From Bacteroidota bacterium (GTDB taxonomy: Bacteria > Bacteroidota > Bacteroidia > 2-12-FULL-35-15), in the NCBI GenBank assembly GCA_040387415.1, contig JAZKDU010000015.1, positions 56,166 to 120,165 on the forward strand: a DNA stretch of 64,000 nucleotides. Reading direction: 5' to 3'. The notes under the pieces are model-generated. The model saw only the letters and a list, made by a program, of their open reading frames with translations, had not been told where the DNA came from and did no database searches. Below, piece after piece: positions 28,539-39,161 of this stretch (positions are counted from its first letter, which is position 1; the number at the start of each line of letters is the position of its first letter). Position numbers and translations under genes: made by a program.

Positions 28539-29186
28539 TTATCCAATATGTGCCTTTTCAAAACGATACACTTTCGGTAATTCATTATTATTCCTAAAGT
28601 TTACATCCAGATCCTTAATAAACCCATTTTGTATACTATACACCCAACCGTGAACCTCCAATTTTTGTCCATTTCTCCAGGCATTCTGAACAATACTGGT
28701 TTTGCACAAATCATACACTTGCTCCATCACATTTAATTCCACAAATCTTCTTGCGCGTAATTTCTCATCTTCAATACTTTCTAATTCCTGATGATAGGTT
28801 TTATAAACATCTTTAATATGACGAAGCCAGTTATCAATCAAACCATATTGTTTGTTGCCCATAGCAGCCATAACACCGCCACATTCATAATGTCCGCATA
28901 CAATAATGTGTTTTACTTTAAGTACTTCTACTGCATATGAAAGAACGCTTAACATATTCATATCGCTGTGAACTACCATATTTGCAATGTTGCGGTGAAC
29001 AAATATATCTCCTGGCTGGGTTCCGGTAATCTGGTTAGCAGGCACACGGCTATCGGAACAGCCAATCCATAAATACTCCGGTGTTTGGCCCTCGGCTAAT
29101 CTTTTAAAATATTCGGGGTCCAGTTCCAATTGTTCTTTTACCCATGCTTTATTATTTTCTAATAATACCTTATATGATTTTTCCAT
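28539..29186 (-). CDS. Beta-class carbonic anhydrase
   Basis: CSDSRVP ... HxxCGG (HYECGGV) zinc-ligand motifs. 215 aa. Confidence 0.9.
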   Translation of the reverse strand: MEKSYKVLLENNKAWVKEQLELDPEYFKRLAEGQTPEYLWIGCSDSRVPANQITGTQPGDIFVHRNIANMVVHSDMNMLSVLSYAVEVLKVKHIIVCGHYECGGVMAAMGNKQYGLIDNWLRHIKDVYKTYHQELESIEDEKLRARRFVELNVMEQVYDLCKTSIVQNAWRNGQKLEVHGWVYSIQNGFIKDLDVNFRNNNELPKVYRFEKAHIG

Positions 29187-29200
29187 TTTTTTTTAGTTTT

Positions 29201-30781
29201 TTAATGGCCTGATACCCCTTTAAATGCAGGAATCTCTTTCAGTTCCATGTTTATATTTTTTAATATTGCGGTGTTATTTTTAAAATCATGTATGATCTCA
29301 ATAACATCCATATCTATATTCCTTGATTTACTTCCATCTATTAATACGTTTGAACCTTCTGGTAATTGTTCAAGTGTGAGCACAATGCTTCCCTTATTAA
29401 GAAAGGATACATCCTCAGCCAACCGGATAACTATTTTATCCTTTCCTTCTTTTTCTTCTTCAATATGGAAGAAATAAGCAAGCTTATAGCTGTTACGCAG
29501 AATAATAAATGCCGAAACAATCATTCCTGCAGCAATACCTTTTAACAGATCCGAAAACTGAATAGCAACAACCGTAACAATAAAAGGTAAAAACTGCTCC
29601 CAGCCTAATTTATACATGGTGGTGAATAATGAAACTTTTGCAAGTTTATATCCTACAAGCAATAATACAGCTGCAAGACAAGCCAAAGGAATTTTGTTTA
29701 GCACCGATGCCAGGCCAACTACACTCACCAATAAAAGCAAGCCATGAAAAATAGACGCGAGCTTTGTTTTACCCCCAGAGTTAACATTGGCTGAACTACG
29801 CACAATTACTGCAGTTAATGGTAATCCGCCAATTAAACCGGACACCATGTTTCCTAAACCCTGTGCTTTTAATTCCCGATTGGTTGGAGTGCTTCTTTTA
29901 AAAGGATCCAGCTTATCAGCTGCTTCAATACTAAGAAGTGATTCCAAACTGGCAATAACAGCAATAGTTAAAGCAACTACATATACGTGATAGTTACCAA
30001 ATGCAGTAAAATCAGGTAATGTGAATTGATTGATAAAACCCGTTGCTGAATCAGCCACAGGTAAACGTACCAGCTTCTCCCCTGTTAATAAAAATTCAGG
30101 GATATACGCTCTATACATTTCATTCATCAAAACGCCCAATATTACTACTATCAAAGCACCCGGAACAAACTTGAAGAAGGCATATTTCTTCAATACCGGG
30201 CGGTCCCAGAGAATTAAAACCAGCAGCGAAATAACACTTACAATAATGGCACCGGGATGCAGAAAGTTAACAGAATTAAAAATTTCCGAAATGGTGTTTT
30301 GTCCATCCACCTGAAAAAAGTCAAAATCTCCTTCGTTGTCTTTATCATACCCTAATGCGTGCGGTATTTGCTTCAGAATTAAAATAATACCAATTGCAGC
30401 AAGCATCCCTTTAATTACGCTGGAAGGGAAATAATAGGCAATAATCCCTGCTTTTAAATACCCTAGTGCAATTTGAATTAATCCTGCTAAAACTACTGCC
30501 AGCAAAAATGTTTCGTAACTGCCTAACTGTGTAATAGCGTTTAGTACAATAACCGTTAAACCTGCTGCAGGCCCGCTAACGCTCAGTGCAGATCCGCTTG
30601 TAAAAGCAACTACAGTACCGCCAACAATTCCGGCTATAATTCCGGAAAACAAGGGTGCTCCGGAAGCCAATGCAATCCCAAGACATAAAGGTAATGCAAC
30701 TAAAAAAACTACTAGTCCGGCAGGCAAATCATTTTTAATATAAGCGAAGCTTAATTCTTTGGTTGGTTTGTTTAAAAGCAT
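29201..30781 (-). CDS. SulP-family anion transporter with C-terminal STAS domain (bicarbonate/sulfate permease type)
   Basis: 526 aa, polytopic membrane protein with STAS-like C-terminus. Stop is 15 bp upstream of the carbonic anhydrase start. Confidence 0.9.
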   Translation of the reverse strand: MLLNKPTKELSFAYIKNDLPAGLVVFLVALPLCLGIALASGAPLFSGIIAGIVGGTVVAFTSGSALSVSGPAAGLTVIVLNAITQLGSYETFLLAVVLAGLIQIALGYLKAGIIAYYFPSSVIKGMLAAIGIILILKQIPHALGYDKDNEGDFDFFQVDGQNTISEIFNSVNFLHPGAIIVSVISLLVLILWDRPVLKKYAFFKFVPGALIVVILGVLMNEMYRAYIPEFLLTGEKLVRLPVADSATGFINQFTLPDFTAFGNYHVYVVALTIAVIASLESLLSIEAADKLDPFKRSTPTNRELKAQGLGNMVSGLIGGLPLTAVIVRSSANVNSGGKTKLASIFHGLLLLVSVVGLASVLNKIPLACLAAVLLLVGYKLAKVSLFTTMYKLGWEQFLPFIVTVVAIQFSDLLKGIAAGMIVSAFIILRNSYKLAYFFHIEEEKEGKDKIVIRLAEDVSFLNKGSIVLTLEQLPEGSNVLIDGSKSRNIDMDVIEIIHDFKNNTAILKNINMELKEIPAFKGVSGH

Positions 30782-30891
30782 AGTAATATCAGAAAATAAT
30801 TAATGAAAATAAACTTCCGGGTAAGCGGACGTTAATACGATAATGAATGTTTTTTTAGTGGATTACTACAAAGCGTAGCCTTGCAGTTAAA

Positions 30892-31293
30892 TTAAATTAC
30901 AGTGTACTCTGGGGGCGAATATACTGTTTGACTATAATCTGATGTGGAAAAAATAAAATCACCCGATCGGATATAATTTAAGTGGTTGAAGGAGGCTAAC
31001 CTGCAGTGATCAAGATTAAATAAATTTTCTGAGAACTCTTTTTTTTCCTTTTCATCCGATTTTTCTGATTCAGAATCTTCCTCACCTTCAAAGTCTGATA
31101 AGTCTGTAACAATTCCATTAGTTATTTTTTTTGTGAAATAACTAATGGTTTCATTGCTGAAGACAAATAAGAATAAAATAAGCAAGCAATATGTTACAAC
31201 TTTTTTCAAAATCAGTTTGTTCGGTTTTTGCAAAGGTGCAAAAAAAAAGTGCCATTTTTTAGAAAAAATCAACAGTTTAGCATTTTTTAACAA
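30892..31293 (-). CDS. Hypothetical small protein with hydrophobic segment and acidic tract, upstream of SulP
   Basis: ORF only; acidic DLSDFEGEEDSESEKSDEKEKKE stretch. May be non-coding. Confidence 0.3.
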   Translation of the reverse strand: MLKNAKLLIFSKKWHFFFAPLQKPNKLILKKVVTYCLLILFLFVFSNETISYFTKKITNGIVTDLSDFEGEEDSESEKSDEKEKKEFSENLFNLDHCRLASFNHLNYIRSGDFIFSTSDYSQTVYSPPEYTVI

Positions 31294-31421
31294 ATAGTGA
31301 AGGTGTTAAAACCTGGGTAAAAACAGCTCTAAAAAGCACAGAATAAATTTCCTAAAGTAAACGTAATATTACCTTAATGTAAAAGTCTCATTACTAATAT
31401 ACTTTAGCCGTTCATTCAACA

Positions 31422-32111
31422 ATGTTAATGAACAACCCGGCTTTTAAAATATTAATTATTGATACGGATACCGAACTAGTTTCGTCTATGGGTGCAGCTT
31501 TGCAGATGGAGGGCCTTTGTGTAATTACATCTTCAAAATCACGCGAAGCTATTCAGCTTGCAATTGCGCAGCAACCTCATCTTATTTTAGTTGAGCTGCT
31601 AATGCCGGAACTGGATGGCATAGACATCTGTATAGAGCTAAGGCACCAACCTGATTTGTTACACACCCTCATTGTATTTTATACCGAACGCAATGAGGAT
31701 TATTCTCAAATAGCTGCTTTTAATGCCGGAGCTGATGACTACATTATTAAACCGGTTAAAATGAGAGTACTGAAAAGCAGGTTAAAGGCAATGTTGAAAC
31801 GCCACCCTATAAATCAGGATAAAGTCATTAAAAATGATGGTATTGGCCTAGTCATTGACCGCGAGCGATACCTGGTTTTTAAGGATGGGGAAGAAATTGT
31901 GTTGCCGAGAAAAGAATTTGAATTGCTTGCTTTACTTTCAGCTTCGCCAAGGAAAGTTTTTACCCGAAAGGAAATCTCACAGTTAATCTGGGGATACGAA
32001 TTTGTGGCGAAAAACAGAACCATTGATGTTCATATTCTTAAAATCCGTGAAAAACTGGGTGATAAATACGTAAAGACAATAAAAGGCGTTGGATATTGCC
32101 TGGAAGGTTAA
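31422..32111 (+). CDS. OmpR/PhoB-family response regulator with Glu in place of the phospho-acceptor Asp (atypical, orphan)
   Basis: REC + winged-helix domains. Acceptor motif reads LILVELLMPELDG, with a gag codon at 31593-31595 where LILLDxxMP is canonical. The N-terminal acidic pocket is also altered (IDTDTE). Conserved T (FYT) and K (IIKP) are present. Confidence 0.85.
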   Translation: MLMNNPAFKILIIDTDTELVSSMGAALQMEGLCVITSSKSREAIQLAIAQQPHLILVELLMPELDGIDICIELRHQPDLLHTLIVFYTERNEDYSQIAAFNAGADDYIIKPVKMRVLKSRLKAMLKRHPINQDKVIKNDGIGLVIDRERYLVFKDGEEIVLPRKEFELLALLSASPRKVFTRKEISQLIWGYEFVAKNRTIDVHILKIREKLGDKYVKTIKGVGYCLEG

Positions 32112-32161
32112 ACCTTTATAATTCTGAATTTATTATAAAGCTGTTTTTAATTTTATTGATT

Positions 32162-32279
32162 TTTCTTGTTACTGTTTCAAACTTCTTTGACTAAACTCGG
32201 ACTGGCAGCGCGCGGTCATATTGAGCTTGTAGAAATATTGAGGCTGAATTTTGTAGAATTTTTTTTTAAAATTTAAACC
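32162..32279 (-). repeat. Copy A of a duplicated ~118-bp intergenic element carrying a 16-codon ORF (MTARCQSEFSQRSLKQ, minus strand)
   Basis: About 80% identical to 34332-34451 by direct alignment. Conserved ATG and stop at the same positions in both copies. Confidence 0.7.
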
Positions 32280-32283
32280 GATT

Positions 32284-32754
32284 CTATAAATTATCGTAAT
32301 TTTTTTCGCTGGTAATTTTTCCGTTTTCATCCCACATGGTCCAGTTTCCTTTTTTTTCGCCCATTGCATAAATCATTTCGTAACGTTTAGTTCCATTGTT
32401 ATCCCAAACCAGCCAGGTTCCATTTTTTTTACCGAAAATATAAAACGCTTCTGCAATTTTTTTCCCTGCTTCATCCCAGCGAAGCCATTGTCCGTTTTTT
32501 TCATTATCAGTAAAAGTGCCAGTTTCCATTACATTTCCATTCTCATAGTAATAAGTGATCATTCCATTCACTTTACCATTTGCAACAGCAAATACTGATT
32601 TTTTACTTCCCGCTTTAAAATAAGAAGTATAATAACCTGAATACAAGCCCCCGTTATCAGTGTAATAAATACCTTCTTTTAAAATTATATTTTGAGCGTT
32701 TACCCCGCAAGCCAATGTGAGACTTACAATAAGTAATAAAATTATTTTTTTCAT
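32284..32754 (-). CDS. MORN-variant repeat lipoprotein ('YwqK-family antitoxin'-type repeats)
   Basis: Signal peptide plus lipobox-like LACG. Repeats of YYENG..E.G.F.DG.K.G.W. Confidence 0.75.
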   Translation of the reverse strand: MKKIILLLIVSLTLACGVNAQNIILKEGIYYTDNGGLYSGYYTSYFKAGSKKSVFAVANGKVNGMITYYYENGNVMETGTFTDNEKNGQWLRWDEAGKKIAEAFYIFGKKNGTWLVWDNNGTKRYEMIYAMGEKKGNWTMWDENGKITSEKNYDNL

Positions 32755-32833
32755 AGCTTCAGTGTTTTACAATGATGATTGTATTACGCAAAGAAATAAA
32801 AAAAGGTTTTAATACAGAAGTTAAACGCCCATA

Positions 32834-32877
32834 AAAACACCTGAATGTTAAGTTAATGTAAAGTCAACAGGTGTTTT
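32834..32877 (-). terminator. Terminator hairpin downstream of the small CarbopepD gene
   Basis: aacacctg-(24-nt loop)-caggtgtt, with a T-run on the minus strand. Confidence 0.45.
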
Positions 32878-32958
32878 AACTGAATTGACTCCATAAAATA
32901 AAAAAAGCCTCCAGCAATTCAATGCAGCAAGGCTTTGGAGCGATGTATTATTTTGTAT

Positions 32959-33282
32959 TTAGTTCGACTCTAATTCAACTAGTATTTCACCAAAATTATG
33001 AGAGTCGATATTAACTTTAACGTCATTATAAGAAACTGAAGTAATCAAGGCTTCGGTTTTTCCCGTTTGGATGCTTGCCATAAAGTTTCCATTTAAGTCG
33101 GAATAAATAATTTTGTCATTAATGCTGATCTTAGCTCCAGCTATTTCTTCCCCGCTTATTTTATCGATCACTTTCCCTGTAATCAGTCTTTTATTCTCCT
33201 TCTCCTTGTTATTACCATTGCTGCCTGCAATAGCGACACTGCCTATGAAAATTAAAAAAAAAGTGGTAATATATATTCTCAT
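32959..33282 (-). CDS. Small secreted carboxypeptidase-regulatory-like (CarbopepD_reg) domain protein
   Basis: Signal peptide and GKVIDKISGEEIAGAKISIND...SDLNGNF, a CarbopepD_reg-like beta-sandwich. 107 aa. Confidence 0.6.
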   Translation of the reverse strand: MRIYITTFFLIFIGSVAIAGSNGNNKEKENKRLITGKVIDKISGEEIAGAKISINDKIIYSDLNGNFMASIQTGKTEALITSVSYNDVKVNIDSHNFGEILVELESN

Positions 33283-33368
33283 TTATGGTGGATTTATACT
33301 TCAAAAGTATCATGTAAATCCATTGGGGAAGTTATTCGAAATTTAACAGTATATGAAGATTACATTAA

Positions 33369-33770
33369 CTATGTTAAATTAATATTATTAGCTGCGGTGA
33401 GAATGTTTCGTCTCTGAAATAAAAAAACAAACTCATTATCGCTATAGGTTTTATTCTGTAGCAGGCTTTTTACAACAAGGTGTTCGGAAGTTTGCAGGTT
33501 TAAATAGTCTTCCAATTTAATCAAACCTGGAAGTACAGCTTTTTTAAAATATTTCATTTTAATTTGCTCACCAAACAATTCCTGTTCATTTTCAGGATCG
33601 GATGTAGTCACCACAATCAGATCAGGCGCAGTATCTTTTGCCTTTGACAAGGCCTCCTGCAAACTGGAAGATTTTAATATCTGAAAACCATTTCTGGTCA
33701 GATTTACCGCAACATGTTCGATTTCATCAATTTGGTCGAACACTAACAAAATACGATTCATACTTTTCAT
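33369..33770 (-). CDS. Degenerate (pseudo-)receiver domain protein
   Basis: Receiver-like fold, but the acceptor position reads PDLIVVTTSDPE (Thr where Asp is expected). Confidence 0.55.
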   Translation of the reverse strand: MKSMNRILLVFDQIDEIEHVAVNLTRNGFQILKSSSLQEALSKAKDTAPDLIVVTTSDPENEQELFGEQIKMKYFKKAVLPGLIKLEDYLNLQTSEHLVVKSLLQNKTYSDNEFVFLFQRRNILTAANNINLT

Positions 33771-33786
33771 TTCAAGAATATAAAAA

Positions 33787-34176
33787 TTAAACTACTTTAT
33801 CCATGTCAATAATTACATGACTTATTATTTCAAAAAGATTTTCAAACTTAATTGGCTTGGATATAAATTGATCGGCACCGGATAAAAATGCGTACAACAC
33901 CTTATAATCATCATTAACAGCGGTAAGGAAAAGAAAAGGTATGGCATTTAACCTGGGAATTTTCCTGATAGTTTTACACATTTCAATTCCATCCATTTCG
34001 GGCATAAGAACATCCGAAATAATTATTTGCGGATACTCAATCTGCGCTTGTTTAATTCCTTCTAATCCATTATTTGCTGTTATTACAATGAAGCCTTTTT
34101 TTCGAAAATTGTATGAAAGAAATTCAAGAATGTCCGGCTCATCGTCAACAATCAAAATTTTTATTGGTGTTTTCAT
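33787..34176 (-). CDS. Single-domain response regulator (canonical receiver)
   Basis: LIVDDEPD, IISDVLMPEMDG, LTA, KP motifs all present. Confidence 0.85.
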   Translation of the reverse strand: MKTPIKILIVDDEPDILEFLSYNFRKKGFIVITANNGLEGIKQAQIEYPQIIISDVLMPEMDGIEMCKTIRKIPRLNAIPFLFLTAVNDDYKVLYAFLSGADQFISKPIKFENLFEIISHVIIDMDKVV

Positions 34177-34268
34177 AATTTATCAATAGAAAAGTATATA
34201 CCAAAAACCCTGTATATAGTCTGTGATTGTTAAGAAATAGTTAACTTAAGGTTATGTTTATAAAATAA

Positions 34269-34300
34269 AACACCCGCTCCTAATAGACACGGGTGCTTTA
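34269..34300 (-). terminator. Terminator hairpin (mainly minus-strand) downstream of copy B of the small-ORF element
   Basis: cacccg-ctcctaatagaca-cgggtg, followed by a T-run on the minus strand. Confidence 0.4.
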
Positions 34301-34331
34301 TTACATTAAGAAACTGTTTAAATATTGCTAT

Positions 34332-34451
34332 TTTTTTGTTATCGCTTCCCACTTCTTCGACTAAGCTCAGACTCACAGCGTGCGGTCATATGAGCGTGTT
34401 GAAATATGTGGGCTGAATTTATACCTGTAGAATTTTTTTATAAATTTAAAC
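34332..34451 (-). repeat. Copy B of the duplicated ~118-bp element with 16-codon ORF (MTARCESELSRRSGKR)
   Basis: Aligned by eye to 32162-32279. Both copies lie immediately 3' of minus-strand genes. Confidence 0.7.
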
Positions 34452-34471
34452 AGACTGTCATTTAAAAATGT

Positions 34472-36124
34472 TTATTTAGCTACTACAAATTTTACTGTCT
34501 TGCTAAAATTGTCTGAACTAATAGTAGTAAAATAAATACCAGATGTTAAAGCACTGGTATTAACTTTAACTGAATTCATGCCTGTATTCATTTCTCCTGC
34601 AAATACATTTACAAGAGCCTTTCCAGTAATATCATAAATGATTATCATAACTTTTTCTGCAGTTTTTAAACTAACATTCATTGTAGCATCATTGGTTACC
34701 GGATTTGGATATAAACCAATTGTTGCGTTATCATTTCCCTTTTCGTTTATACCCGAAGTTACACTCCCCCCAAGTTTAGGATGACTAAATGAAGCGCCCG
34801 AAGCGGCTAATGATGTAGATTGCAGACGATAATCAGGTGTGGACGATAAAGAAGAAGGAAAACCATTCACCCATGCAATTTCCGCTGTCGTTTTTGTTGA
34901 ATCGTTTACATCAGCTGAAAAAATTGTGTTGTACACAGCAAGAGTAATATTTGCATCTAAAATGATTGCCTGATCAATATCAGAAGCGATTAAATTATTT
35001 GCAAACACTGCTGAATCATTCATAGTAAAATTATCAACTGTGCCGGCATCTTTTAAATATACTCCTTTTTGCCAGGAAGCAGCAACAGAATTAAATATGG
35101 AGATGGAAGAATTTCTGCGGATATAAAAAGCTCTTTCAAATTTTTCTCCGGCAGGTAATGTTATAGTACCATTGCGTAATGGCCCCACATTGGTAATGTT
35201 TGAAAAAACCGCTTGTGTTCTTGGCAAATTAGCTGTTCCTGTTGCATCGTTATCCGATTCAAAACCATTTGAATCACCTGCAGCATCTGATAAATCAGGA
35301 TCTCTTACGATTAAACCAAACTGTACACGGCCTCTGTAGCCGAAATCTGTATCAAAATCATCATCTGTTCCGCGGAAAGCTATTAAATATTTAGCATCAA
35401 CTGTTCCTCCAAACCACTCGAAACTGTCGTCTCCGGAAAATGATATTTGTATATGGTCTACTTTTGTTTTTGAACCTACCGATCCGAACGTTAAACCGTT
35501 AATTTCCTTATTCGGTTGAAACGCAATTCCAGGAAATTCAATGCGTACATAGGAAAACACTCCTGAACTGTCCTGATCATTAGACCCTCCATATTCACTA
35601 TTTGTGGAAACAACGATACCTTCAATATTCGCAACACCACCCGGTTGATTGTGTGTGGCACTCCCTAGTATTACAACGCCTCCCCAATCACCTTCAGCTC
35701 TTGAACCAACAGCTTCGCTGGAAGTAAACACAATCGGGTTACTGGAAGTTCCTTGTGCTATTATTTTAGCACCTTTTGAAATAAGCAATGTACCTTGTGT
35801 AGCCTTATCTCCACGGATAACAACACCTGGTTGAATGGTCAGCACTGCGTTATTTTTTACATAAATTTTATTTTCTAACAATACAATTGTGCCTGTTGTC
35901 CAGGTTGTATTTGCTGTAATATCAGCATTAACTGTGGTTGTGGGAGCTCCATAAGCTGCATTTTCAGGATCAAAGTTTGACCAGCCACTCGTCCAGTCCG
36001 ATGCTGTAGTATTATCAGTTACTGGAAACGCTCCTTTATAAGAAGTTGTTGTCCAGAAAGTTGTTTGTGCGTTTAGTGAACCGCCTATCAAGCTTGCCAA
36101 TGCCAGTTTGTAAATTTTCTTCAT
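34472..36124 (-). CDS. T9SS C-terminal-sorting-domain secreted protein with parallel beta-helix-like body
   Basis: Signal peptide, Gly/Ser/Thr-rich repeats typical of a beta-helix. C-terminal LYPNPV...GIYFTTI Por CTD. Confidence 0.8.
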   Translation of the reverse strand: MKKIYKLALASLIGGSLNAQTTFWTTTSYKGAFPVTDNTTASDWTSGWSNFDPENAAYGAPTTTVNADITANTTWTTGTIVLLENKIYVKNNAVLTIQPGVVIRGDKATQGTLLISKGAKIIAQGTSSNPIVFTSSEAVGSRAEGDWGGVVILGSATHNQPGGVANIEGIVVSTNSEYGGSNDQDSSGVFSYVRIEFPGIAFQPNKEINGLTFGSVGSKTKVDHIQISFSGDDSFEWFGGTVDAKYLIAFRGTDDDFDTDFGYRGRVQFGLIVRDPDLSDAAGDSNGFESDNDATGTANLPRTQAVFSNITNVGPLRNGTITLPAGEKFERAFYIRRNSSISIFNSVAASWQKGVYLKDAGTVDNFTMNDSAVFANNLIASDIDQAIILDANITLAVYNTIFSADVNDSTKTTAEIAWVNGFPSSLSSTPDYRLQSTSLAASGASFSHPKLGGSVTSGINEKGNDNATIGLYPNPVTNDATMNVSLKTAEKVMIIIYDITGKALVNVFAGEMNTGMNSVKVNTSALTSGIYFTTISSDNFSKTVKFVVAK

Positions 36125-36287
36125 TTGTTCTCGATTTATTTAGTTTTATTTTTTGACAAAACTACAATCGTTGTGTTGTGGTATAATTAAGCGCAGGTTG
36201 TATGTTTCTTACTTAATCTTTAATTTAATGTTAAGTGGAAAGAAGAAAAAATCTGATGGGCTGGGATTCTGAGAGTCAAAAGGTTCT

Positions 36288-39161
36288 TTAAAATTTATAA
36301 GACACGCCAAGAGATACCGTTTGTCCGAAATTAGTATTCGTCATTGTATTATCCTTCTGTTCATCGTATTGTCCATCTTTATCAATATCCTGATAAAAAA
36401 TCAAATTTTGCGCCAGTGCATCTCTTACATTCAACTTTATTTCGAAACGTTCCTTAATTTTTTTCACTATTTGTAAGTCAATTACATTACGTTGTTTTTC
36501 CCAATAATCCGGCTCACTTAAACTTCCTACAATGTAAATTCGCTTTCCGACCAAATTATATGAAACGCTGAAACTAAATCCATTGCTGGGATGTATATAT
36601 TGAATCCCCGCATTTACAATTACAGGAGACTGTCCCTGCAACGGGCGCTCATCAGCAGTAGCACCATTAACTCCGCTTACATCCACCTTTGATTTGATGT
36701 ATGAAAAATTAGTATACAAGGTCGTAGCCGATAAAAATGCGCTTGAATCATTTTTGAAAATTGAACTTAATTTAAAGCGATATTCAAGTTCAATACCTAC
36801 GTTTGTTGCCTTGGGTACATTTACATAATATAATTCCCTTAAAACATCCGGGCGATTAACCTGTTCAATCGCATTCGTAAATTTTTTATAGAATCCAGAA
36901 ACTGAAATTAATTGTCCGGCACCCGGATAATATTCAAATCGTAAATCATAATTATCAATTAAAGCACGCTGTAATTCCGGATTTCCGGACACAGCAAAAT
37001 CAGTAACAAAATCAAAAAATATAAATGGTGCCAACTCCCTGAATTCGGGACGTGACACAGTACGGTAATAGCTGGCTCTCAGATTAATTTTTTCAGTTAA
37101 AGAATATACGAGGTTAACTGAAGGCAAAAGGTCATTAACAGTAGTGTCGGAATCAACAGGAGTATTGCTTCCGTCTTTAATTGTATGTAACTGTTGATTA
37201 TAGGACTCTATACGCACACCATAAATAGCACGTAATCGTTCAAAAAATTTGGAATCTAACATCAGAAAACCAGCATTTAAAAATGATGATGCAGTATAAC
37301 TATCACTTGTTTTAGTGGCCTCATCGAGTTTAAAACCGCCATTATATGGACCTGGCTGATCAAGCAGTCCCATATTGCTGCTCGCAAAAATTTCTTCTTC
37401 GGGCAATAGTAACAATTGACTGTCAAATTTTATTGCACTGCCTTTTCTGTATTTTGAAAACCCTAAGTTACGTGCAGAAAAACTTCTTTTTCTGTATTGA
37501 TGAAATCCGCCAATTTTGAGATCTGTTTTTGTAGCTTTTATTTGCAGGGGACGATTTGCTTCGTATTTAAAACTATAAATATCTTCATTCGTTTCTGAGA
37601 AGAACATATTGCCGGCAGCATTAGGAATTGTACCTTCATTTTGAACAATGGCGGCATATTCGGTACTTGGATCATTTTCTTCACTTGCTGTCTTCTGATA
37701 TACAACCCTCCTCATATTGGGCACACTTCGTTTTATGTCGCTAATTCCACCAGTCCATTTAATCTTTATTTTAGATGCCGGTAATAAATGATCTCCGCTT
37801 AACTGCCCTGTGTAAAGGATATTCTGAGTAAACCAACGAAGGGAAGATTTTTCCCATTGCTTTTCCGGCTGATCAAATTCACGGGCTCCATTACGAATAG
37901 TTACTTTATCATCACTATTCACACTCAATAAATTTTTAAAATTTATCTGATTGTTATCATTCAATTTGTAGGCCAGATTCCACATAGCACTTGCCAGCAC
38001 AGCCTGAGTGTACTGCTGATCATTGAGCTCCATGCGTTTTACAACACCAGTGGATTGCTCTTCGTACTCCCGTCTTATTGTTTCATTGTAATTATAATTG
38101 TTCTGATAAGTAACAGCGAAGATGCTCCCCGCTTCACGTTTAAAAATTTTTCCAACATTTGCAATACTGTATTGTAGGTTAAGAGCGGGCAGGGCTGTTA
38201 CTGTTTTAATTGCCCATGAAGGAGTTGTCTGTTTTGCTAATTCTCCTTTTTGTTCAACTGTTAAATGGGAAAACTCAAGTGTAGTGGGCATGGTAGATGG
38301 CAGAGCTCTTGTACCATCGTCAACCCCAAGCCAATCATACTTTCCGCCCTCATAGGTTTTAAATTCTTTGAATGTGGTGATGGCATTATAGGAGCTTGCA
38401 ATTGAAACTATTTGTTCATTTTTTTCAGGTATACTCTTCGTATTGATTTGAATAATGCCACCCGCAAACTCACCCGGCATATCAGGGGTTGCCGTTTTTG
38501 TGATTACTAAATTATCAAGCATATTGGCAGGAAAAATATCGAACGCGAATGCTTTCCGGTCAGACTCAGAGCTAGGCAAAGGTGCACCGTTAATATATGC
38601 CGCATTGTACCTGTCATTCAAGCCTCTTATAATTGCAAATTTATTATCCTGAATGCTTGCCCCACTGATACGTTTAAGCACATCACTTGTATTGCGATCA
38701 GGAGTTCTTTTTATTGATTCGGAAGAAATACCATCAGAAACGGATGCATTATTTTTTTGCATCACCAGCATAGCATTGGTTGTTTCTTTATTCATTGTTG
38801 CAGTTATTTCAACAACCCCCAGATCAGTTGAAGCTGTTGACAATGTTAGCGAAACAATAGCCGGCTCACCTGACTTTACAATTACGTCCGTTAGCAGTTT
38901 GGTATTATAAGATATCAATTTGCAAACAAGTGTGTATTTTCCTGGTGCAACATTATTAATTGTAAAAGCACCATCCAGATCCGTATTTCCTCCAATAAGC
39001 GTACCTTCAATTAATACAACTGCCCCAGGCAGTGTTTCACCCGTTTTTTCATCTATCACTTTTCCTTTTACCGAATTCTGAGCGAACATGATATTTACTA
39101 ATATCACAAGTACCCCTATACTAAACAACTTAAATTTCATTTTCATTTTATTTACCTGCAA
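36288..39161 (-). CDS. TonB-dependent outer-membrane receptor with N-terminal CarbopepD_reg domain
   Basis: Signal peptide. VKGKVIDEKTGETLPGAVV (CarbopepD_reg). Plug and 22-strand barrel with C-terminal aromatic residue (…YKF). The true start may be the MKMKFKLF methionine. Confidence 0.9.
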   Translation of the reverse strand: MQVNKMKMKFKLFSIGVLVILVNIMFAQNSVKGKVIDEKTGETLPGAVVLIEGTLIGGNTDLDGAFTINNVAPGKYTLVCKLISYNTKLLTDVIVKSGEPAIVSLTLSTASTDLGVVEITATMNKETTNAMLVMQKNNASVSDGISSESIKRTPDRNTSDVLKRISGASIQDNKFAIIRGLNDRYNAAYINGAPLPSSESDRKAFAFDIFPANMLDNLVITKTATPDMPGEFAGGIIQINTKSIPEKNEQIVSIASSYNAITTFKEFKTYEGGKYDWLGVDDGTRALPSTMPTTLEFSHLTVEQKGELAKQTTPSWAIKTVTALPALNLQYSIANVGKIFKREAGSIFAVTYQNNYNYNETIRREYEEQSTGVVKRMELNDQQYTQAVLASAMWNLAYKLNDNNQINFKNLLSVNSDDKVTIRNGAREFDQPEKQWEKSSLRWFTQNILYTGQLSGDHLLPASKIKIKWTGGISDIKRSVPNMRRVVYQKTASEENDPSTEYAAIVQNEGTIPNAAGNMFFSETNEDIYSFKYEANRPLQIKATKTDLKIGGFHQYRKRSFSARNLGFSKYRKGSAIKFDSQLLLLPEEEIFASSNMGLLDQPGPYNGGFKLDEATKTSDSYTASSFLNAGFLMLDSKFFERLRAIYGVRIESYNQQLHTIKDGSNTPVDSDTTVNDLLPSVNLVYSLTEKINLRASYYRTVSRPEFRELAPFIFFDFVTDFAVSGNPELQRALIDNYDLRFEYYPGAGQLISVSGFYKKFTNAIEQVNRPDVLRELYYVNVPKATNVGIELEYRFKLSSIFKNDSSAFLSATTLYTNFSYIKSKVDVSGVNGATADERPLQGQSPVIVNAGIQYIHPSNGFSFSVSYNLVGKRIYIVGSLSEPDYWEKQRNVIDLQIVKKIKERFEIKLNVRDALAQNLIFYQDIDKDGQYDEQKDNTMTNTNFGQTVSLGVSYKF

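Follow-up and report, generated by a model that had tools for sequence, protein, structure and literature searches.

Among the closest described systems are the repetitive extragenic palindromes of Proteobacteria and other bacteria, known as REP, BIME and REPIN elements (Di Nocera et al. 2013, PMC3733652; Quentin et al. 2018, PMC6006769). REPs are defined by a GT[AG]G or CGTC tag, and their usual pattern is a conserved stem with a short loop (PMC3733652). Here, we describe two short repeats in a 64,000-nucleotide stretch of a Bacteroidota genome (GenBank assembly GCA_040387415.1, contig JAZKDU010000015.1, positions 56,166 to 120,165), which as a whole is referred to below as the window. The two repeats, here called copies A and B, represent sister copies of a palindromic insertion of 140 nt that is non-coding and has at its centre an inverted pair consisting of a hairpin unit (U), about 10 nt and an inverted partner unit (U'). 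Very probably they are non-coding relics of a family of hairpin repeats, and the 16-codon open reading frame (ORF) in each of them is incidental. The family resembles the REP and BIME elements and yet is apparently uncatalogued, with no Rfam family and no paper found for it.

Both copies lie on the minus strand, 2.17 kb apart. A repeat search recovered them as three collinear blocks with identities of 80%, 83% and 88%, and a gapped MAFFT alignment gave a mean column identity of 84% over 179 columns. An nhmmer profile derived from the pair matched the 64-kb window only at these two sites (E = 8e-41 and 3e-43; the next match had E = 3.6), and a 24-nt degenerate pattern had two matches, with 0.00 expected. 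The preliminary description of this DNA, which had reported two copies in the same orientation, was thus correct in their placement, but the length of about 118 bp that it gave was too short: the homology is slightly longer, and the element measures exactly 140 nt in both copies and is bounded by short terminal inverted repeats.

32141..32280, minus strand: copy A, whole element; begins 3 nt past the TAG stop codon of a MORN gene (nhmmer match, 32153-32289)
34314..34453, minus strand: copy B, whole element; begins 18 nt past the TAA stop codon of a gene for a protein sorted by the type IX secretion system (T9SS) and ends 11 nt before a terminator (nhmmer match, 34321-34459)

The terminal inverted repeat of copy A is imperfect and spans 13/14 nt (CGGTTTAAATTTT at 32268-32280 and AAAATTAAAAACAG at 32141-32154), and that of copy B is perfect over 10 bp (CTGTTTAAAT at 34444-34453 and ATTTAAACAG at 34314-34323). 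As a control for copy B, an inverted repeat of at least 10 bp arose in 18 of 2000 shuffles. No further unit, intact or decayed, was found in the window or in the 10 kb beyond its start.

To keep the search for relatives of the element free of a bias toward the ORF, species-representative genomes were scanned with a pattern that covered only sequence upstream of the ORF. Apart from about four chance matches, this pattern hit another Bacteroidetes metagenome-assembled genome, with one copy on each of three contigs; these copies had the core CATATTTCGACARGCTCAATATGAC in common, a 2-nt indel 3' of ATGAC and ORFs of 9, 20 and 34 codons. A second search with a 21-base core pattern that ended at ATGAC, and was therefore blind to the rest of the ORF, matched at least 120 metagenome loci. 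The unit of the family is GTCA-NNN-TGAGCYTGTCGAA-N'N'N'-TGAC, a stem-loop with a nearly invariant loop of 13 nt. The GTCA foot was present in 215 to 219 of 222 units, and the three positions on each side of the loop covaried. Among 127 distinct units, with at most eight taken per stem class, the three inner stem pairs were about 90% paired and included all four Watson-Crick types. The covariation score was 0.494, compared with 0.160 in shuffles (0 of 500 reached 0.494), and partners slid out of register scored 0.153 at most. The consensus unit folded with -10.5 kcal/mol (z = -3.2) and the family consensus with -32.2 kcal/mol (z = -4.0). Among the stem mismatches of the family there was no excess of G-U (G-T) over A-C, which selection at the RNA level on one strand would give. 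As read from the sequence, the loop could lengthen the stem on the TGAGC strand only, by a U-A pair, tandem G.A/A.G pairs and a G-C pair, to a putative CYUGU pentaloop; the sole variable position of the loop (T or C) would fall in this pentaloop.

The family occurs as single units, as inverted pairs in both orders and as mosaic clusters. Only 3 of 128 copies lay inside ORFs of at least 150 codons, against a background of 81%, and the flanking genes of these 128 copies were convergent in 28 cases and divergent in 5. Single units in tandem gene contexts carried TGAGC... on the sense strand 28 times and on the other strand 12 times, a weak hint of a strand preference. The mosaic clusters are BIME-like (locus L082, 922-1447 and 4123-4365; locus L119, 8373-8867) and hold, in L082, up to 12 units in 530 nt, with the stem classes CAC/GTG, CCC/GGG and TAT/ATA in both orientations. 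The genes around the clusters are housekeeping genes (methyltransferase, glutaminyl cyclase, saccharopine dehydrogenase). Clusters were also seen in L194, the phage locus described below. A group II intron, which exceeds the gathering scores of both RF01999 and RF00029, occupies 481-2343 on the minus strand of locus L027 and ends some 80 nt before a repeat element that lies downstream of it; the intron may be a chance neighbour or may have inserted into the outer palindrome.

The unit was found in Bacteroidota, Cyanobacteria, Alphaproteobacteria and Betaproteobacteria as well as in temperate phages. Plasmids of Novosphingobium (L137, 536-2019), Comamonas (L140), Gloeothece (L138), Hymenobacter (L139) and Microvirga (L136) carry it with stems that are paired but differ from each other. 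On inspection, four of these five records had the unit between annotated genes, and the fifth, from Microvirga, is almost unannotated; read from the sequence, the Microvirga unit adjoins an A8 run in what appears to be coding sequence. Methylobacterium was also among the BLAST matches to the single unit. The single unit alone matched the plasmid collection, whereas the composite consensus had no match there. The foot varied with the group: the alphaproteobacterium has GCTCA or GCTCG, the betaproteobacterium GTTCG and the cyanobacterium GTCA. Viral contigs contributed 73 loci with the unit. One phage contig (IMGVR_UViG_3300025154_000037; L194, 1-11040; also L172, L188, L197 and L209) carries 19 units in 11 kb, and these occupy almost every gap between co-directional genes. 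Many of them form back-to-back pairs in which 27 nt separate the loops and the two stems differ. Judged by its integrase, tail proteins, primase, N6/N4 methylase and T5orf172 domain, the phage is temperate and siphovirus-like. In one case the start codon of the following gene lies inside the 3' half of a stem (unit 2608, ORF start 2605). The conservation of the loop across phyla, together with the density of units in this phage, suggests a conserved partner or function.

The core of copies A and B corresponds to U (ATAT-TTCGACAAGCTCA-ATAT-GAC), about 10 nt (consensus CAGCGCGCTG) and U' (GTCAGTC-TGAGCTTGTCGAA-GACTG), a layout common to 29 metagenome copies. The four units in the window read as follows.

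32215..32238, minus strand: copy A, unit U, ATAT-TTCTACAAGCTCA-ATAT-GAC; one substitution in the loop, one difference from the family core TTCGACAAGCTCANNATGAC; contains the ATG of the ORF
32180..32204, minus strand: copy A, inverted partner U', CAGTC-CGAGTTTAGTCAAA-GAAGTT; badly decayed, aligned to the family consensus
34385..34407, minus strand: copy B, unit U, ATAT-TTCAACACGCTC-ATAT-GAC; two substitutions and a 1-nt deletion in the loop
34352..34374, minus strand: copy B, partner U', GAGTC-TGAGCTTaGTCGAA-GAAG; loop intact except for one inserted A, stem broken by GAAG in place of GACT

When a model was derived from nothing but the downstream arms of the 29 metagenome copies, and thus from sequence outside the search pattern, it found the arm of copy B (34385-34353) at E = 2e-4 and that of copy A only at E = 2.9. 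The marks of decay are the changed loops of U, the extra A in both U' loops and the replacement of GACT by GAAG, which breaks the stem of U'. Indeed, the hairpins of the window showed no advantage in folding over shuffled sequence (z = -0.07 and -0.26), in contrast to the family consensus, and folding of the window copies as RNA on either strand (z from -2.3 to +0.7) gave no support for a structured RNA. Copies A and B have several private characters in common, namely the 1-nt insertion (the extra A), the 1-nt deletion and a 50-nt AT-rich 5' arm, for which no convincing match was seen in any fetched locus; therefore, they are sister copies. Taken by itself, the feature in the window is ordinary and amounts to two dead copies of a repeat in 3' untranslated regions (UTRs). 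Two further interpretations of the sequence were discarded. A change at the base of the hairpin between A and B that looked compensatory (CTCAA/TTTGA versus CCCAC/GTGGG) was not counted because the pairs lie in different registers, and the element is not an intrinsic terminator, since it has no U-tract, its hairpin is unstable and a separate terminator lies 3' of copy B.

Each copy contains an ORF of 16 codons plus a stop codon.

32219-32169, minus strand: micro-ORF of copy A, MTARCQSEFSQRSLKQ*, judged incidental
34389-34339, minus strand: micro-ORF of copy B, MTARCESELSRRSGKR*, judged incidental

Re-reading of both copies confirmed what had been reported of these ORFs, that is, that they are intact at the same positions and that nine codons differ, four synonymously and five with a change of amino acid; the nine codons contain 11 nucleotide differences. 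The proposal built on this pattern, a translated micro-ORF for a toxin or a regulatory peptide, is not supported by the comparison with the family, since start, frame and stop are not kept in the family copies and the pairwise statistics are weak. When the same substitutions were placed at random, the ORF stayed intact in 22% of the trials, amino acid identity was at least that observed in 12.5% and both held in 4.4%, values that come from a single pair and from a test devised post hoc. The ATG of the ORF is made up of the last stem base (A) and the TG of the invariant TGAC foot, and every related ORF thus starts with Met-Thr. Among 130 distinct copies, found with the pattern blind to everything 3' of ATGAC, the length of the ORF ranged from 1 to more than 90 codons, and the ORFs crossed U' in all three frames (...ACRR..., ...SLSK... 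and ...ELVE...). Frameshifts and stops in additional copies had been named beforehand as evidence against translation, and frameshifts, early stops and read-through are indeed what the relatives from other genomes contain.

The origin of the 16-codon frame was apparent from 37 U-U' copies, comprising the 35 closest relatives outside the window and the two window copies. The offset from the ATG to the loop of U', taken modulo 3, was distributed 19/10/8. The distance itself was 21 nt in 18 copies, 22 nt in 7 and 20 nt in 3, the last including both window copies. At the commonest offset, 21 nt, the TGA of the loop itself is in frame and the ORF ends after 7 codons. The 16-codon frame exists because A and B together inherited a 1-nt deletion and a 1-nt insertion, and their agreement thus counts as one event and not as two. 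A promoter scan of the sigma-70 type gave 15 sites, no enrichment over the 12.9 in shuffles, with a model that does not cover Bacteroidota signals. In Bacteroidota, the -7 promoter motif is TAnnTTTG, and on reading the sequence no match to it was found upstream of the micro-ORF on its strand. The frame of micro-ORF A is open upstream for 66 codons (32169-32369, minus strand) and runs into the end of the MORN gene, which is read in a different frame; since copy B has nothing comparable, this extension is taken as chance. The anatomy of the repeat and the two shared indels account for the ATG, the frame and the stop, and most likely the micro-ORF is an accident.

Domain annotation of the genes around the copies gave the following features.

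32284-32754, minus strand: gene of a MORN_2 protein, upstream of copy A
34472-36124, minus strand: gene of a Por_Secre_tail (T9SS-sorted) protein, upstream of copy B; Pfam annotation also gives Beta_helix_4
34264..34302, minus strand: intrinsic terminator of the T9SS gene transcript, outside the repeat; -20.2 kcal/mol, z = -5.7, with a U-tract

The domains agree with the earlier assignment of a MORN and a T9SS beta-helix gene upstream of the copies, and the rho-independent terminator that had been noticed after copy B is real by its fold and z score; its stem is followed by UUUUAUUUU. Orthologs of the T9SS protein with 70 to 79% identity led to loci in four relatives (L002, L003, L005 and L007), in which the pair of TonB receptor and T9SS gene is conserved. 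In L002, L005 and L007 a terminator comes after the gene with no element in between, and in L002 the element is also absent after the MORN ortholog. L003 has the same layout of terminator after T9SS gene, and weak similarity to the element (E = 0.24-0.29) was found only beyond the terminator and is left unproven. Since orthologous loci in relatives lack it, the 140-nt element is an insertion, and copy B came to lie between the stop codon and a terminator that was already there. The weakly similar sequence in L003 (11770-11845, 3' of the terminator) is a different hairpin, CTTCGCTCGAA...TTCGAGCGGAG; several metagenome copies, among them those in L059 and L070, have arms like those of this hairpin, CGCTCGAA and TTCGAGCG, on either side of U-U'. 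The pair of TonB-dependent receptor and T9SS beta-helix protein is syntenic between the window (28539-39161) and loci L001, L002, L005 and L007. It adjoins phosphate-related genes (Porin_O_P, PhoU_div, PHO4, pstSCAB-phoU) and genes of OmpR-type response regulators, a neighbourhood which suggests a secreted protein tied to phosphate starvation.

How could the copies have arisen? An ancestral copy would have entered the lineage and would then have given rise to one more copy, in another intergenic site 3' of a gene. Both copies would since have decayed and, hardly active if at all, would now be co-transcribed as part of the 3' UTRs of the MORN and T9SS genes. Intact units elsewhere may spread as non-autonomous hairpin DNA by means of an enzyme acting in trans that reads the loop and the GTCA foot, in analogy to REP and REPIN elements and Y1 transposases; this way of spreading, taken over from those systems, is possible but doubtful. 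Resident copies, again by analogy, may be transcribed into 3' UTRs as stem-loops of the mRNA, and pairs of units would be able to form long stem-loops. We also consider, tentatively, that the hairpin unit might be an undescribed functional nucleic acid element that occurs across phyla, with its 13-nt loop read by a conserved protein or RNA partner; the window copies would then be its fossils.

Several observations weigh against the reading of A and B as dead copies of a REP-like mobile repeat. No transposase or Y1/HUH gene was found near the copies by a regular expression for the HUH/Y motif over 880 kb of loci, and the Pfam/PHROGs annotation of a few contigs gave housekeeping or ordinary phage genes as neighbours and no transposase. 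A target-site duplication was looked for at both copies and none was seen (flanks AGAAA/ACTGT for copy B and TAAAG/ATTCT for copy A). Only two copies are visible in the approximately 74 kb of the source genome, and thus the 140-nt composite is not shown to be multicopy or mobile there. A loop conserved across phyla and a phage with a unit in nearly every gap fit poorly to a purely selfish, REP-like model. Finally, the joint probability for the pair of ORFs (P = 0.044) is nominally unusual.

This last value, together with two intact ORFs of identical start, length and stop and the four synonymous changes among nine changed codons, is what speaks for a lineage-specific gene for a micro-protein, in which the repeat would have supplied the ATG and the frame and a basic peptide of 16 residues, for example a toxin or a regulator, would have been recruited and kept by selection in both copies. 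However, the test was made post hoc on one pair, the 5' part of the element outside the ORF is apparently conserved about as well as the ORF, the ORF hangs on the two jointly inherited indels, the peptide is kept in no related copy, the TAnnTTTG motif is not seen upstream on the ORF strand and 5 of the 16 residues differ, one of them being a change from Leu to Gly. We therefore regard a micro-protein gene as highly improbable. A functional RNA element of the 3' UTR that is under selection in the source genome, such as a processed small RNA (sRNA) or a stem-loop that shields the upstream mRNA or serves as a site of RNase cleavage, is slightly less remote, though still improbable. Copy B has the stop codon of the T9SS gene before it and a strong terminator after it and hence is transcribed with that gene, family members favour the 3' ends of genes, single units show the modest sense-strand bias given above and the consensus of an Aggregatibacter sRNA family, RF02901, holds the same inverted pair, although with matches below the threshold. 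Against this, the hairpins of the window do not exceed shuffled sequence in stability, disabling departures from the family consensus are present in both loops and in the U' stems, the family stems have no excess of G-U over A-C mismatches and the orthologous genes of relatives do without the element.

In the case of a purely local duplication, replication slippage or gene conversion would have placed a copy of one old insertion at a distance of 2.1 kb, and the 140 nt would never have been mobile. The copies seen are indeed only two, in the same orientation and 2.17 kb apart, and their AT-rich arm occurs in no other fetched locus. On the other hand, in both copies the duplicated segment coincides exactly with the 140 nt that the terminal inverted repeats enclose and no sequence of the neighbouring genes was copied with it, so that a discrete element fits better than a segmental event. 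A local duplication is thus unlikely, and it would alter the copying step alone and not the nature of the element. Of the candidates named in the preliminary description, the translated gene is not supported, an sRNA may arise as a by-product, given that the element lies in a 3' UTR, and the miniature mobile element comes nearest to the evidence.

The preferred reading, a decayed non-coding repeat with an incidental ORF, removes a false small-gene candidate from the window and explains why it looked convincing. Since the family supplies an ATG and reads in three frames, it will yield spurious micro-ORFs and "hypothetical proteins" wherever it is present, and we advise that it be masked in annotation pipelines and in screens for small proteins. 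The family is unusual among extragenic palindromes in that the loop is conserved and the stem free to vary, in that it occurs across phyla and in that it is very dense in one phage. If a partner that reads the loop exists, the unit would belong to a part of bacterial RNA or DNA biology that is widely shared and has no Rfam family.

Among known systems, miniature inverted-repeat transposable elements are like the window copies in being discrete and non-coding, here with 140 AT-rich nucleotides, terminal inverted repeats of 10 to 13 bp, an intergenic location and absence from orthologous sites. They differ in that the window copies have no target-site duplication, no parent insertion sequence with the same ends came to light, though the complete source genome was not searched for one, and the conserved part of the window element is the central hairpin pair and not the ends, its AT-rich arms being private to A and B. 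The consensus of RF02901 (AaHKsRNA41, Aggregatibacter sRNA 41) includes GCUGAGCUUGCCGAAGC ... UUCGGCAAGCUCAGC, the same inverted pair of units, and in one gammaproteobacterium the repeat thus lies inside a family that Rfam classes as an sRNA gene. However, the matches reach 22 to 32 bits (the best, 32.3 bits, in the L082 cluster) compared with a gathering score of 97, and the rest of the 187-nt model is unrelated. RF02901 gave nothing on the window copies at E values up to 10. In the window region, all Rfam matches up to that E value were at chance level and mostly to the terminator. On 20 related loci, Rfam at gathering thresholds gave nothing on the element and only the group II intron in L027, and Rfam 15 has no family for the hairpin unit. 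Full-text literature searches for 12- and 13-mers and for the spurious peptide strings returned nothing relevant, and keyword searches gave only REP papers with differing elements.

In phages, processing hairpins for RNase III of the T7 type sit between genes. By analogy, the back-to-back pairs in nearly every co-directional gap of the phage described above resemble such intergenic hairpins for processing or 3' protection, with the difference that units of the family also occur in bacterial chromosomes and plasmids.

The family behaves like the REP and BIME elements. Both consist of short, imperfect palindromes that are scattered outside genes, with a concentration at gene 3' ends; in both, the units stand alone, join as inverted pairs that can fold into one long hairpin, or form mosaic clusters with differing stems; and both have an invariant short foot beside the stem. 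The defining tag is not present, however, since the foot of the family is GTCA and not GT[AG]G or CGTC, and the table of REPs beside Y1 transposase genes in PMC6006769, including the "atypical" Bacteroidetes subclass 2.6, has no entry containing GTCGAAG. No gene of a REP-associated tyrosine transposase (RAYT/Y1) was found near copies of the family with the motif expression over the 880 kb of loci, and housekeeping genes flank the L082 clusters. REP families are usually specific to a species or a genus, whereas the loop described here spans Bacteroidota, Cyanobacteria, Alpha- and Betaproteobacteria and phages. Moreover, the stem of the family is short (3 to 7 bp) and variable and its loop is long (13 nt) and nearly invariant, which is the opposite of most REPs.

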